A stretch of 60,000 bases of DNA from Candidatus Pacearchaeota archaeon (GTDB lineage: Archaea; Nanobdellota; Nanobdellia; Pacearchaeales; GW2011-AR1): positions 130,410 to 190,409 of the forward strand of contig JBBDJR010000006.1 of the NCBI GenBank assembly GCA_040879785.1, in the 5' to 3' direction. The position numbers were made by a program, and so were the translations under genes. Below are positions 18,173 to 54,206 of this stretch, piece by piece (the first letter of the stretch is position 1; each line of letters opens with the position of its first letter). The notes under the pieces are model-generated. The model worked only from the letters and a program-made list of their open reading frames with translations. It did not search any database and had not been told where the DNA came from.

Positions 18173-18245
18173 GGCTCCATAGCTCAGTTGGAAGAGCGCG
18201 TCTCTCATGAGGACGAGGTCCCGGGTTCGGTTCCCGGTGGAGCCA
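18173..18245 (+). tRNA. tRNA with CAU anticodon (elongator Met or Ile2)
   Basis: GGCTCCA/TGGAGCC acceptor, GCTC/GAGC D stem, CGTCT/GGACG anticodon stem, loop CTCATGA, CCGGG/CCCGG T stem. The T loop TTCGGTT has G instead of the usual A at position 58. It does not look like an initiator. Confidence 0.85.
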
Positions 18246-19083
18246 TTAATCTCTCAAACCTCAAATTGATGGGTTCTCTAATAGGTTTATGATTTGAGGA
18301 TGGAACTCCTTTAATAGATTGATTGTACTCCCGATCATAATTCATAAAGTCAAGAAACTTTTTATGGTGTTTCAGATTTACAAAACCTATTTCTTTCTCG
18401 AAAAGTAGTAGATTTTTCTTCCCATTAAACTGAAATCGGTATTGATCCTGAACAACATTCCACCTAGGATCTGGCCTTGACTTACAGAAATAGTGATTAC
18501 CACTCATCCCTAAACTCTGGAGATAATCATGAATCTCCTTGATTAACTGTTTGTGAATTGTTCTTGATTCAATTCTTGGGTAATATTTATTTGGATTTTT
18601 CGTTAGGACAAAACTCCCGTCAGTTGCAAAAAATCCTTGAACAACATGTTTTAATAAATTTTTCTCATAGAACAGTTTAGGTATTTTTAGATTAGCTCCT
18701 TTCTTTCCCACAGGGAAACCAGAAGAAGAAATCAAATCAAAAAGCTCGGCATCTATGAAATTAAATTCTATTGCATTACAATCTTTCCTAAACTTCAAGT
18801 TTGTATTTTTCTCTCTAAAGTAGACTAAAAGAGGGGAAACAATTTCTTGGAAGAAGGATATATCATCTATAGAAGATCCTGTTATTGCAATAAACTTCTT
18901 TTTACCATTAACCAAACTCAAGCAACCATCCCCCATTATTATTCCGCATAAAAGTGCAAATTTTTCTTCATCATTCATAGATTCTAAAGATAGGACCATT
19001 TTATTTTTTCCTAAGATATGTTTTAATAAATCCTTCAAGGACTTCCCATATATTTTTCCTTTCTTTTTTAACTTTAGAAACAA
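18205..19083 (-). CDS. LAGLIDADG homing endonuclease-like protein (double-motif, monomeric type)
   Basis: Two LAGLIDADG motifs are present: LLCGIIMGDGCL and VVQGFFATDGSF. The last ~13 codons (MAPPGTEPGTSSS) are antisense read-through of tRNA-CAU, so the real C-terminus is uncertain. Confidence 0.8.
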   Translation of the reverse strand: MFLKLKKKGKIYGKSLKDLLKHILGKNKMVLSLESMNDEEKFALLCGIIMGDGCLSLVNGKKKFIAITGSSIDDISFFQEIVSPLLVYFREKNTNLKFRKDCNAIEFNFIDAELFDLISSSGFPVGKKGANLKIPKLFYEKNLLKHVVQGFFATDGSFVLTKNPNKYYPRIESRTIHKQLIKEIHDYLQSLGMSGNHYFCKSRPDPRWNVVQDQYRFQFNGKKNLLLFEKEIGFVNLKHHKKFLDFMNYDREYNQSIKGVPSSNHKPIREPINLRFERLMAPPGTEPGTSSS

Positions 19084-19217
19084 AATCTATCCATAAATCT
19101 CTGTTTCCTCTAAAAGTAATTATTTCTTTCTCTTTCATAAATAATGTAATACAGTAATACTTATAAACCTTTCTTTTCTCTAGTACGAGGTCCCAGGTTC
19201 AAATCCTGGTGCAGCCA
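18246..19217. mobile_element. putative homing-endonuclease cassette lodged between tRNA-CAU and a decayed copy of its 3' half
   Basis: An intact tRNA, a ~940-nt insert carrying only the LAGLIDADG ORF, and then a 35-nt degenerate duplicate of tRNA positions ~39-73. Confidence 0.4.
19183..19217 (+). pseudogene. degenerate duplicate of the tRNA-CAU 3' half
   Basis: Compare GTACGAGGTCCCAGGTTCAAATCCTGGTGCAGCCA with the genuine GGACGAGGTCCCGGGTTCGGTTCCCGGTGGAGCCA. It would mispair in the acceptor (C5.C68) and the anticodon stem. No 5' half was found nearby. Confidence 0.7.
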
Positions 19218-19226
19218 TAGAGTTAG

Positions 19227-25041: not shown

Positions 25042-25182
25042 TGCGGGCGAAAGGATTCGAACCTTTGTAAGCACTAAGCTAACAGGTTTCTTCGAGGTCC
25101 GTTTGCGTTATTATTATGCTGATAATCTCTTGCAAATCTACTCGCCTAAGCCTGTCCCGTTTGACCACTCCGGCACGCCCGC
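25042..25182 (-). tRNA. tRNA-Leu (UAG) with ~57-nt intron at the canonical 37/38 position
   Basis: GCGGGCG/CGCCCGC acceptor, ACAGG/CCTGT anticodon stem, loop CTTAGG|intron|A, long variable arm (TAGCTTAGTGCTTAC), AAAGG-TTCGAAT-CCTTT T arm and discriminator A. Confidence 0.8.
25088..25144 (-). other. tRNA-Leu intron
   Basis: This sequence lies between anticodon-loop G37 and A38. The internal helix CGAG/CTCG flanks the junctions. The exact splice sites were not determined. Confidence 0.6.
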
Positions 25183-52316: not shown

Positions 52317-52389
52317 TAGCCCCACCAGGATTCGAACCTGGGTCACGACCTCCAAAGGGTCGTATCTTTGACCGCTAGACTATGGGGCT
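52317..52389 (-). tRNA. tRNA-Gln (UUG)
   Basis: AGCCCCA/TGGGGCT acceptor (A1-U72 as in archaeal tRNA-Gln), GTCT/AGAT D stem, CGACC-CTTTGGA-GGTCG anticodon arm, CCAGG-TTCGAAT-CCTGG T arm. Confidence 0.88.
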
Positions 52390-53337
52390 TCAAAAGTTCC
52401 ACTTATTAACTTTATTTAAATGTCTCGAATTATGAAATCCAATTTGTTTTAAAAACTTTCTTAGTTCAGATTTCTTAGTTATATACACTTTATTTCCTTT
52501 AGTGATTTTTGAAGGCACAATTCCTAAAATCTCCAAAGATTCCTTCACATCTCTCAACAAAGTTAGATTAAAATTAGTGAAAACTATTTGATATGTATTC
52601 TGATTGTTAAGTTTATAGATCCCTCCATCTGTATCATATAATCCTCTTAAACAGGCTGCCAAAAAGCGATGGTTTTCTTTAATCCATTTAGGGATACCTA
52701 GCCGATTCTTTATCTTATTACCTGGTTTGAATCCCTTCTCCTCCAAAAAATTTACTAGCCTAACTCCATACGCAACTAAAAACATAGCATTACGAGAATT
52801 TTTGAAGTTTTCTTTTGGATTGAACTTTCCTGAATTAACTTTTATATTAAATAATTTTTCAATTAGGGATTTCACATAATTAATGAGGTAATCCTCATCA
52901 TGCCTCGAATCCCCAACAACCCTAATAACGTAAGTTCCTCGTTTATTCATTCTTGACTCATAGAATTGCGTCTTGTGTGAATTACCGTCCCCCAACATTA
53001 TTCCAAAAAATTCTGCCAGTTTCACAGAGTCTTTAGGAATTTTTATTGTTTTAGTATTCCCTTTTGAATTTTTTCCTCCCTTAGATTGCCCCCAATTATC
53101 TCCAATTTTTTCAGAGATAAATTTATCAAAATCTCTATTTACCATCTTGCAAATTTTTCTATAAAGAACCTCATCCAATAATCTTACTTCATTTCTTAAT
53201 TCGTTTCTTAAGTAACCCTCTGAAACCCCTAATAATTTAGATAATTGTGACCAGGAATAATCTTTTTTTAAGAGACTTATCATTTCTCTCTGCTTTCCTT
53301 TAACAAATTTCAATCTCATCCTAAAATTAAGAAGCAA
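52390..53337 (-). CDS. LAGLIDADG homing endonuclease-like protein with N-terminal HTH
   Basis: Two LAGLIDADG motifs: LAEFFGIMLGDGNS and CLRGLYDTDGGIY. The N-terminus has SWSQLSKLLGVSEGYLRNEL. The stop codon (52390-52392) abuts nucleotide 1 of tRNA-Gln. Confidence 0.8.
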   Translation of the reverse strand: MLLNFRMRLKFVKGKQREMISLLKKDYSWSQLSKLLGVSEGYLRNELRNEVRLLDEVLYRKICKMVNRDFDKFISEKIGDNWGQSKGGKNSKGNTKTIKIPKDSVKLAEFFGIMLGDGNSHKTQFYESRMNKRGTYVIRVVGDSRHDEDYLINYVKSLIEKLFNIKVNSGKFNPKENFKNSRNAMFLVAYGVRLVNFLEEKGFKPGNKIKNRLGIPKWIKENHRFLAACLRGLYDTDGGIYKLNNQNTYQIVFTNFNLTLLRDVKESLEILGIVPSKITKGNKVYITKKSELRKFLKQIGFHNSRHLNKVNKWNF

Positions 53338-53347
53338 AAGTATATAA

Positions 53348-53401
53348 GTCTATTGCTTGACCACTAAACTACATATACTATTGTTAAATCCTGGCGGGGC
53401 T
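53348..53401. pseudogene. decayed tRNA-Gln fragments upstream of the LAGLIDADG gene
   Basis: 53348-53372 (GTCTATTGCTTGACCACTAAACTAC) resembles the antisense of the tRNA-Gln D-arm region (52359-52383) in the same orientation as the gene. 53383-53401 (GTTAAATCCTGGCGGGGCT) resembles the sense 3' end, but in inverted orientation. Confidence 0.55.
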
Positions 53402-54206
53402 ATTCCTTAAAAGCCCTCTTATAAAAAAGCTCTCGATTAATTTCCTGTCTCTTCGGAGTCAACTTCCTAAAGAACTCCGTCAATCTTCTTTGTTTATACT
53501 TCTCTCCAATAAGAACCCCCGCAAGCTTTTTGTATTCAACACTTCCTTTAGAATTCGGTTTATGGATTGTATATGGCTTCATTTTTGAGAGGGCATTTAG
53601 AACTTCCGTATCATGAGGTATGACTGCAAGAACAGGAATCCCTAAAGTCTCCTCGACATCCTCAAAAGAAACCTCAAAATTTTTATTATGAACTTTATTC
53701 AGAACCAATCCTGATATCGGCGCTCCTCTCTGCTTAGCCAGCTTTATTGCCTTTATCGTCGCGCTAAGAGTTGAATGGTCGGGCGTCGTAACAACAATAA
53801 TCTCATCAGATGCAAGCATGACTGCAAGAGTTTCTTCGTCGAGGGAAGGAGAAGAATCTATCAAAATTACATCATAACTTCTTTTCAAACCCTTAATCCT
53901 ATCTCTCAGTTTAAGAGGATTTATCTTTGATTTCCAAAAGATTGAGGCAGGCATCACGTGCAAGCCATCCAAATCATGTATAGCGTCTTTAGTTCCCGCA
54001 GACCTGTCCAAAACATGATGAAGAGTTTTTTCAGGGTCCACTACATTTAGATGAAGCCCCAAACTTGGAGACGAAAGATTTCCATCAATTAAGAGAGTTT
54101 TCTTTCCAAGACTCGAGAACGCCGCTCCCAGAGAAGAAACAACACTCGTTTTCCCCACACCTCCTTTTAAACTAACAATACCAATGGTTTTTCCCATTAT
54201 AACCAA
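53400..54206 (-). CDS. MinD/ParA-family P-loop ATPase
   Basis: Deviant Walker A IVSLKGGVGKTSVV, Walker B VILIDSSPS; 268 aa. Confidence 0.85.
   Translation of the reverse strand: MVIMGKTIGIVSLKGGVGKTSVVSSLGAAFSSLGKKTLLIDGNLSSPSLGLHLNVVDPEKTLHHVLDRSAGTKDAIHDLDGLHVMPASIFWKSKINPLKLRDRIKGLKRSYDVILIDSSPSLDEETLAVMLASDEIIVVTTPDHSTLSATIKAIKLAKQRGAPISGLVLNKVHNKNFEVSFEDVEETLGIPVLAVIPHDTEVLNALSKMKPYTIHKPNSKGSVEYKKLAGVLIGEKYKQRRLTEFFRKLTPKRQEINRELFYKRAFKE

Follow-up and report, generated by a model that had tools for sequence, protein, structure and literature searches.

Genes encoding LAGLIDADG homing endonucleases are found next to two transfer RNA (tRNA) genes in a 60-kb stretch (hereafter the window) of the genome of a Candidatus Pacearchaeota archaeon, corresponding to positions 130,410-190,409 of contig JBBDJR010000006.1 (assembly GCA_040879785.1). 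At both places pieces of a further tRNA gene, a tRNA(CAU) at the first and a tRNA-Gln at the second, mark the opposite end of the insert. Both loci are interpreted as free-standing LAGLIDADG cassettes, each of which has brought in a complete tRNA gene with the same anticodon as the gene invaded, a reading to which we assign a probability of about 0.7. The architecture of the loci, their recurrence, presence and absence at one orthologous site, the foreign nature of the intact tRNA and the resident nature of the fragment are directly supported by the data. The endonuclease genes lie outside introns and inteins and have their own expression signals; the intact tRNA is uninterrupted, and at the first locus the endonuclease gene is antisense to it. 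A preliminary description of the window had proposed that a homing-endonuclease cassette linked to a tRNA gene displaced the original gene and left it as a fragment, and this idea is borne out.

The tRNA(CAU) locus

The window has a G+C content of 36%, and hosts among others genes for an archaeal-type glycyl-tRNA synthetase (GlyRS), the ribosomal protein S17e and a Bud32/KEOPS kinase. These genes, together with the names given to homologues, assign it to DPANN archaea of the Pacearchaeota, Woesearchaeota or Nanoarchaeota kind. Its tRNA genes were called by ARAGORN and Rfam. Both recognize a complete tRNA(CAU) gene on the plus strand at 18173-18245 (63.1 bits in Rfam), which had been noted in the preliminary description and is read here as the replacement carried by the cassette. 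The tRNA is not of the initiator type, having a G1-C72 pair and missing the three G-C pairs of the anticodon stem, and is either an elongator tRNA-Met or a tRNA-Ile2. The acceptor stem GGCTCCA/TGGAGCC and the anticodon stem CGTCT/GGACG define, in both halves, an allele called type C, which over its full length also adjoins endonucleases of the same family in two other loci (L027, L034). The anticodon loop CTCATGA (18204-18210), found in most tRNA(CAU) genes of this locus, features a G at position 37, usually occupied by A. The T loop of the window tRNA is TTCGGTT, with G58 (18226-18232), and that of resident genes of another allele, type A, is TTAAAAT, with A56.

The endonuclease HE1 (264 amino acids plus stop) is encoded by the minus strand at 18205-18999. 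Alignment with homologues sets the start at the ATG at 18999, in place of the TTG of a 292-amino-acid open reading frame (ORF). The last 41 nucleotides of the gene are antisense to tRNA positions 33-73, and the TGA stop (18207-18205) complements U33-C34-A35; the ORF had accordingly been described as running into the tRNA. HE1 matches the Pfam family LAGLIDADG_3 (PF14528, E 3e-9) and contains both motifs, GIIMGDGCL and GFFATDGSF, in one chain. Residues D155, G156 and S157 are invariant, and D52 nearly so, in 24 homologues 48-68% identical. Sequence comparison with PDB entries gives marginal matches only (E ~1e-3). The AlphaFold2 (AF2) model (pLDDT 86.2, pTM 0.83) has the pseudo-symmetric double-domain alpha-beta-beta-alpha-beta-beta-alpha fold, and the best match found by Foldseek is I-Tsp061I (2dch, E 1.3e-10), I-DmoI (TM-score ~0.7), I-OnuI and I-AniI being also retrieved. 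By its motifs and model HE1 looks like a competent monomeric homing endonuclease.

The endonuclease gene had been taken as the only content of the insert, which is ~0.95 kb long. The insert also carries an ORF of 45 amino acids (19001-19138, minus strand) and a promoter block, and a degraded piece of tRNA reaches back to about 19170. The stop codon of the small ORF is separated by one base from the ATG of HE1, and the two genes probably form an operon. ORFs 64-79% identical were found by tblastn in related loci (L001, L004, L011/12, L019, L023, L067). The promoter block TTTATAAGTATTACTGTATTAC (19146-19167, minus strand) contains a TATA box located 20-30 nucleotides upstream of the HE1 operon, followed by a GTATTAC direct repeat, a possible operator. 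It is invariant in all seven related loci hosting the small ORF, in spite of the endonucleases being only ~50-70% identical.

Searches of the 45-residue product against Pfam and NCBIfam gave no match, and Foldseek gave no significant one. In the single-sequence AF2 model the chain is extended at its N terminus and then forms two helices. For lack of any match in Pfam and NCBIfam and of significant ones in Foldseek, a ribbon-helix-helix label is not retained. That the product is a small autoregulator, having the GTATTAC repeat as operator, is a guess.

Next to the promoter block, on the plus strand, lies a degenerate remnant (19170-19182) of a tRNA, comprising the anticodon loop and the 5' side of its stem. 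The remnant, identified by comparison with better-preserved junctions in other genomes, marks the border between cassette and resident DNA; it is decayed, and the anticodon is destroyed. It is followed by the 35-mer GTACGAGGTCCCAGGTTCAAATCCTGGTGCAGCCA (19183-19217, plus strand), attributed by nhmmer and allele matching to the resident tRNA(CAU) that was displaced, of which it covers positions 39-73. The 35-mer is identical to the corresponding positions of the intact neighbour at 28/35 residues. Fragments were sought with a purpose-built nhmmer profile, derived from tRNA(CAU) 3' parts, which places the match at 19185-19218 with an E value of 4.4e-6, and the resemblance is therefore not due to chance. 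The Rfam covariance search of the locus reported the complete tRNA and not the fragment. Only 10 nucleotides separate the end of the 35-mer from the HIT gene, and it is here that the resident tRNAs of loci lacking the endonuclease end.

The preliminary description had correctly listed the mismatches between the two sequences, as well as the T loops TTCAAAT in the fragment and TTCGGTT in the intact gene, and had seen in the 35-mer a decayed duplicate of the 3' half of the neighbour. Allele comparisons speak against a duplicate. The fragment belongs to an allele called type B, with a T arm CCAGG-TTCAAAT-CCTGG and an acceptor strand TGCAGCC. Its T arm is well-formed rather than decayed, because the change in the T stem is compensatory (CCAGG/CCTGG versus CCGGG/CCCGG). 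The 5' acceptor strand GGCTCCA of the intact gene pairs with its own TGGAGCC, and would mispair with the TGCAGCC of the fragment. The 35-mer matches the adjacent tRNA at 27/33 positions, the tRNA of another genome (L063) at 30/33, and that of an endonuclease-free locus (L065) at 29/33. Similarly, all 12 fragments that could be scored, the one in the window and 11 others, are closer to the tRNA(CAU) of another genome, usually endonuclease-free, than to their own neighbour. Matches to the neighbour and to the other genome are 29/46 versus 42/46 in L026, 30/45 versus 42/45 in L107, and 8/20 versus 20/20 in L090. In L029 the fragment agrees with endonuclease-free alleles at 35/36 positions; its neighbour, which contains an intron, is outside the scoring. 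Allele matching thus shows that the 35-mer is the 3' end of another tRNA(CAU) allele, the resident one, and that the intact tRNA is foreign. As the intact gene differs over its whole length, the incoming unit should include a complete tRNA, the endonuclease, the promoter and, in the window, the small ORF.

Recurrence and empty sites

Scanning species-representative genomes (one per species) with an alignment of the HE1 family yielded 43 loci. In 34 of these a tRNA(CAU) called by ARAGORN abuts the 3' end of the endonuclease gene on the opposite strand; three of the 34 are intron-containing genes mistyped by the program. In six further loci a tRNA 3' part was found at the same end by nhmmer, which gives a total of 40/43. 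The endonuclease frame overlaps the tRNA in 35/42 related loci. The gene order GlyRS-HIT-[45-aa ORF]-HE-tRNA-S17e-orf299 is conserved, and defines a single syntenic locus. Homologues of HE1 number 266 (E <= 0.001), and many end in ..MAxxGVEPxTSxS, which is translated antisense tRNA.

Many loci feature, past the endonuclease promoter and on the tRNA strand, a tRNA remnant of variable extent. The 5' junction of these remnants is constant across subfamilies: a TATA box and CCTTT precede the anticodon stem, whose 5' strand is present from position ~28 on. It reads ..CCTT(T)CTCTCATGAGG.. in L015, L026 and L107, and ..CCTTTTGCTCTCATAA.. in L027, L028 and L034; the remnant reads ..CTTCTCTCATGAGG.. 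in L026 and L107. The alignment of these junctions places the break at about position 27/28 family-wide, in the anticodon stem, and not at the canonical intron site 37/38 favoured in the preliminary description.

A flanking gene was used to retrieve loci without regard to the endonuclease. Among 80 metagenomic loci fetched via orf299, 43 were informative, and only four of them host the endonuclease. Endonuclease-free alleles, to be looked for in related genomes according to the preliminary description, are therefore available as clean empty sites. The tRNA and HIT genes are separated by gaps of 5 (L055), 32 (L119), 46 (L078), 60 (L106), 80 (L077) and 90 (L059) nucleotides in empty sites, and each of these six loci has a single tRNA and no tRNA fragment.

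The most informative comparison involves four hosts whose flanks are 79-81% identical at the nucleotide level (L088, L090, L085, L029). In L088 the endonuclease is absent, and the tRNA is of type A (GTCTCTG..CAGAGAC) and contains an intron at 37/38. L090 and L085 have the endonuclease and a type B tRNA (GGCT[A/G]CA..), and L029 has the endonuclease and yet another tRNA type. The tRNAs of the three occupied loci differ from that of L088 over the whole length, starting at position 1. The type A tail ..TTAAAATC[C/T]C[T/C]CAGAGACA is nonetheless kept in L090 and L029, exactly where the L088 tRNA ends; the L085 contig stops inside the endonuclease gene, and the tail region is not covered. The flanks are homologous as far as tRNA position -1 on one side, and on the other from the point where the tail ends. 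The L029 and L090 endonucleases are only 44% identical, in contrast with 73% for orf299 and 72% for S17e, which suggests independent acquisitions.

Between L088 and L029, HIT proteins are 45% and orf299 products 74% identical. Such discordance between downstream and upstream flanks is consistent with recombination, or with conversion tracts that stop at the tRNA. Flank identities clash also in other genome pairs, as L088 and L107, in which GlyRS is 73% and orf299 55% identical. In these comparisons (L001-L123, HIT/GlyRS side versus orf299/S17e side) the tRNA locus acts like a breakpoint of recombination. Distances between endonucleases correlate weakly with those between orf299 (rho 0.26) and GlyRS (0.26) sequences.

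Two observations concern the tRNA genes of these loci. In L107 (6377-6450, 7221-7266) the intact tRNA has a type B acceptor and T arm, and the anticodon stem CCGCT/GGCGG of its own type A fragment, a pattern suggestive of gene conversion involving both copies, or of crossing over within the tRNA. In some endonuclease-free loci (L082, L110, L120, L121; also L058, L096, L097) the tRNA(CAU) is followed by an insert of ~80-130 nucleotides and by an exact repeat of its last ~24 nucleotides. The downstream copy features a conserved hairpin-like motif, CGACCG..GAGGTCGCGAG, and an apparent T-arm intron. These repeats could be cassettes devoid of the endonuclease, or result from a different process.

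One more tRNA gene of the window encodes a class II tRNA with a long variable arm and an intron (25042-25182, minus strand, 141 nucleotides), detected by Rfam (45.9 bits) and missed by ARAGORN.

The tRNA-Gln locus

A second case at 52.3-53.4 kb, mentioned in the preliminary description, proved to be real. On the minus strand a complete tRNA-Gln(UUG) gene (52317-52389; ARAGORN, 65.3 bits in Rfam), the putative replacement gene of the second cassette, is directly preceded by the gene of the LAGLIDADG endonuclease HE2 (52390-53319, 309 amino acids; PF14528, E 1.4e-13). HE2 is 25% identical to HE1 by BLASTP, and has 304 homologues at the threshold used for HE1. In most relatives the HE2 frame enters the tRNA by four codons (..SPVV*). 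Upstream of HE2 are a promoter with TATA box and the motif CAATAGA, located at the left end of the cassette (53340-53355, minus strand), and remnants of tRNA-Gln (53356-53402). The first remnant, at 53356-53374 on the minus strand, is a 5' stub of a displaced tRNA-Gln, which includes the D arm and stops at position 21; comparable stubs are present in L124-L140. The second remnant, GTTAAATCCTGGCGGGGCTA (53383-53402, plus strand), is the 3'-end relic of a tRNA-Gln in the opposite orientation.

The order tRNA promoter, tRNA-Gln positions 1-21, CAATAGA plus TATA, HE2, complete tRNA-Gln is found in 10/10 distinct loci, and the junction GGTCAA(A/G)|CAATA(G/A)A..TTATA in every HE2 locus examined. The usual neighbourhood is ParA-..-Bud32-SRP54. 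Three empty sites are available (L132, L133, L135). The flanks of L134, which hosts HE2, and of L135, which lacks it, are ~90% identical. The L134 stub and its flank are likewise ~90% identical to the 5' end and flank of the resident L135 tRNA-Gln, and the complete L134 tRNA-Gln differs from that of L135 by compensatory changes in the T and acceptor stems. Judged by these alignments, the second case is a mirror image of the first, in which HE2 and a complete tRNA-Gln come after what is left of the 5' end of the resident gene.

The plus-strand relic matches the 3' end ..GTTCGAATCCTGGCGGGGCTA of the tRNA-Gln of L132 and L133, which is plus-oriented and free of the endonuclease. By Bud32 (80% identity) L132 is the closest relative of the window, and the relic probably derives from an earlier resident gene of the lineage. 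The relic points to more than one event at the tRNA-Gln locus, which seems to have been invaded repeatedly, or in inverted orientation.

Four of the ten distinct HE2 loci (L124/125, L130/131, L134, L139/140) have a cassette tRNA-Gln carrying a homologous intron of ~35 nucleotides exactly at 21/22, that is, at the cassette junction. The intron is present in none of the three endonuclease-free resident tRNA-Gln genes. By its position and distribution, the intron may confer immunity to HE2.

SRP54-family genes located next to tRNA-Gln in L134 (1-2999) and L135 (1-1582) contain inteins with LAGLIDADG domains. Several kinds of homing elements hence crowd one neighbourhood.

Proposed mechanism, alternative explanations and relation to known systems

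The data suggest the following scheme. The endonuclease would cut resident tRNA genes of endonuclease-free chromosomes at a site spanning the cassette junction, located at 21/22 in the case of HE2 and at about 27/28 in that of HE1; the HE1 site would fall in the region of the D stem and anticodon stem. The break would be repaired off a homologous locus carrying the cassette, with homology provided by the conserved flanks in synteny and by the tRNA tail left in place, and the endonuclease and the linked tRNA would be copied in during the process. At the tRNA(CAU) locus the unit would have replaced resident positions 1 to ~27, stranding positions 28-73 past the promoter, and the 35-mer would be the well-preserved part of this tail. 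Insertion should be cheap, because the host retains a functional tRNA. The orphan piece would escape cutting since half of the target is missing, and the tRNA of the cassette by divergence at the presumed site, or, for HE2, by an intron there. Of the 22 positions surrounding the junction, 4-8 differ between cassette tRNAs and the L088 resident gene. We infer cleavage activity, exact target, repair route and self-immunity from sequence comparisons.

Some points weigh against this interpretation. The analysis is wholly in silico, the comparison sequences all come from metagenome assemblies, and cleavage of resident genes by HE1 and HE2 is itself deduced. Self-immunity is the weakest link. The tRNAs of L063, which hosts the endonuclease, and of L047, which lacks it, have the same sequence all the way from the D arm to the end of the anticodon loop, and a search for an immunity signature in tRNA positions 10-38 revealed no consistent difference between endonuclease-positive and endonuclease-negative loci. 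The tRNA type found beside the endonuclease varies within one endonuclease subfamily, and the L107 tRNA looks chimeric; tRNA and endonuclease are for these reasons not always inherited as one block. The best identity of flank proteins to the genome of the window is ~58-69%, near relatives being absent from the set. With relatives only distant, the empty allele is documented for related lineages and not for that of the window. The weak distance correlation is likewise of little help, and does not discriminate between vertical and horizontal transmission, because the host-to-host control is also weak (0.38).

The preliminary description had assumed that the cassette supplies only a 3' half, inserted at 37/38, so that the 5' half of the intact gene would be original and the 35-mer a decaying duplicate. 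The 28/35 identity of the two 3' halves and the start of the well-preserved part of the fragment at position 39 agree with this view, and the chimeric look of the L107 tRNA makes partial replacement possible. We consider it improbable nevertheless, since the 5' acceptor strand of the intact gene pairs with its own 3' strand and not with that of the fragment, and its 5' half is of type C, as in L027 and L034, rather than of type B as the fragment. Remnants, moreover, start at about position 28 throughout the family, alleles of paired hosts differ from position 1 onwards, and each scorable fragment is nearer to tRNAs of other genomes than to its neighbour. Acceptor pairing and host pairs both indicate that the whole tRNA was replaced. 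The alternative that we would take most seriously, albeit as an unlikely one, is that the endonuclease cuts nearby, in intergenic DNA or on the HIT side, as many free-standing phage enzymes do; the tRNA swap would then be a hitch-hiking co-conversion, and the fragment an old inherited scar. The discordant identities of the two flanks (45% versus 74% for L088 and L029) suggest long conversion tracts, and a single junction form in all subfamilies would fit one founding event. Inherited scars are however hard to reconcile with the tails of L029 and L090, which are type A like the L088 resident gene and imply that fragments are renewed at each invasion. In addition, the breaks associated with two unrelated endonuclease families both fall within a tRNA gene that has the matching anticodon, and target sites of LAGLIDADG enzymes as a rule span the insertion point.

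Vertical inheritance has also to be considered. A domesticated endonuclease, fixed beside tRNA(CAU), might be accompanied by what is left of a tRNA duplicated in tandem long ago. In favour of this, DPANN genomes that diverged deeply share the neighbourhood, and endonuclease and host distances are correlated, if weakly (rho 0.26). Fixation is at odds with the finding of the endonuclease in only 4/43 loci retrieved independently of it, with empty sites having a single tRNA and no fragment, and with the presence/absence polymorphism seen in L088 versus L090 and in L134 versus L135. Endonucleases of related hosts are only 44% identical and lie beside different tRNA types, and a neutral 35-mer would be lost over such divergence, so that this explanation appears very improbable. 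Hardly credible is, finally, that the locus is the scar of an integrase-type element, a bulge-helix-bulge (BHB) or group I intron containing an endonuclease gene, or a split tRNA gene whose 3' half is the 35-mer. Partial repeats of tRNA 3' ends are the classic integrase footprint (PMC9897764), and in Caldiarchaeum a 5' fragment of tRNA-Thr lies 1.8 kb upstream of the intact gene, across an element encoding a recombinase (PMC3293823). The present insert, of ~0.95 kb, contains no integrase or recombinase gene, and the repeats at its ends are ~80% identical and correspond to different alleles. As to introns, the tRNA is complete and unspliced (63 bits), the HE1 gene is antisense to it, and Rfam reports no group I intron. 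A type B 5' half that could complement the 35-mer was not found in the 60-kb window, in which the sole match with up to three mismatches is a complete tRNA-Thr. The locus hence fits none of the classes of BHB-intron-encoded, integrase-type and split-tRNA elements, and this last group of explanations is largely refuted.

If complete tRNA genes are brought in by homing endonucleases, as favoured here, insertion at low cost has a third route besides self-splicing introns and inteins. The element provides a spare copy of the gene it destroys, in this case a whole RNA gene on a cellular chromosome. Cassettes of this kind would account for stray halves of tRNA genes and for peculiar tRNA annotations in DPANN archaea, and would offer a tangible means by which tRNA genes are replaced horizontally and recombination breakpoints arise at tRNA loci. 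The HE1 and HE2 families are also a potential source of enzymes, being two large natural sets of LAGLIDADG proteins with predictable, highly conserved predicted targets.

A broader proposal is more doubtful, and is put forward as a tentative one: tRNA-overwriting endonucleases may be a general force in DPANN archaea, moving whole tRNA genes from one lineage to another, turning tRNA loci into recombination breakpoints, and favouring, as a form of immunity, introns located where the enzyme cuts. What hints at the latter is the coincidence of the 21/22 intron with the HE2 cassette junction, and its occurrence in 4/10 cassettes versus 0/3 resident genes. That introns and gene disruption protect archaeal tRNA genes against mobile elements is an old idea. 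Were the proposal true, it would supply direct comparative evidence for such protection, and an origin for some non-canonical intron positions; the coincidence of junction and intron in cassette tRNA-Gln makes the idea testable.

Archaeal LAGLIDADG genes are classically borne by introns or inteins. The folds closest to HE1 are those of I-Tsp061I, I-DmoI and I-PorI, archaeal monomeric two-domain enzymes which, unlike HE1, are encoded inside spliced BHB introns of rRNA genes; at the loci described here there is no intron, and harm would be avoided by replacing the gene. I-Ssp6803I, reported on by Bonocora and Shub in 2001, is said to belong to the group I intron of a cyanobacterial tRNA-fMet. 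The anticodon region of a tRNA(CAU) would be the target in both cases; I-Ssp6803I is a PD-(D/E)xK enzyme encoded inside a self-splicing bacterial intron, whereas HE1 is a free-standing LAGLIDADG protein. All 39 archaeal group I introns described in a survey are in rRNA genes (PMC6125680). Elements integrated at tRNA genes by integrases, as SSV, pNOB8 and genomic islands, are similarly bracketed by a complete and a partial tRNA, and restore the gene (PMC9897764, PMC3293823). They differ from the present cassettes in relying on a site-specific recombinase, in having exact att repeats, and in their kilobase scale; here a homing endonuclease only, two alleles and ~1 kb of DNA are involved.

Free-standing endonucleases of phages (T4 SegB, seg and mob products, F-CphI) are also encoded outside introns and inteins, and perform intronless homing (PMC2790892, PMC13096335). 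They cut the endonuclease-free homologue, and spread together with neighbouring markers by recombinational repair (PMC2790892, PMC13096335). T4 SegB shares with the cassettes a tRNA neighbourhood (PMC13096335). Phage enzymes are of the GIY-YIG or HNH type, act in co-infections, and leave no truncated remnant of the target, in contrast with the like-for-like tRNA replacement described here. SegB, located in the T4 tRNA gene cluster, reportedly favours the inheritance of that region, a finding attributed to Brok-Volchanskaya et al. in 2008.

In a literature search that left most subscription journals beyond reach, no description was found of LAGLIDADG cassettes linked to, or replacing, tRNA genes in archaea. 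The preliminary description had considered the arrangement as undescribed, which holds in this respect; the principle is known from fungal mitochondria. Mobile ORFs have been described in atp6 of Allomyces macrogynus and in the atp6, atp9, cox2 and nad3 hybrid genes of Glomus (PMC3630166, citing Paquin et al. 1994). These sporadic elements likewise combine a free-standing endonuclease, of the LAGLIDADG or GIY-YIG type, with a foreign replacement of part of the target gene, and the displaced native fragment persists and is nearer to the gene of close relatives than to the inserted copy (PMC3630166). The fungal elements, however, invade protein genes, to which they supply a C-terminal part by in-frame fusion, whereas the archaeal cassettes target chromosomal tRNA genes and, in the best-resolved comparisons, replace the whole gene. 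The latter have moreover their own promoter, are antisense to the tRNA in the first case, and belong to two families which use opposite ends of the tRNA. A principle known for mitochondrial protein genes thus appears to be new for archaeal tRNA genes, where the arrangement is widespread, and is represented by two independent families within a single 60-kb window.

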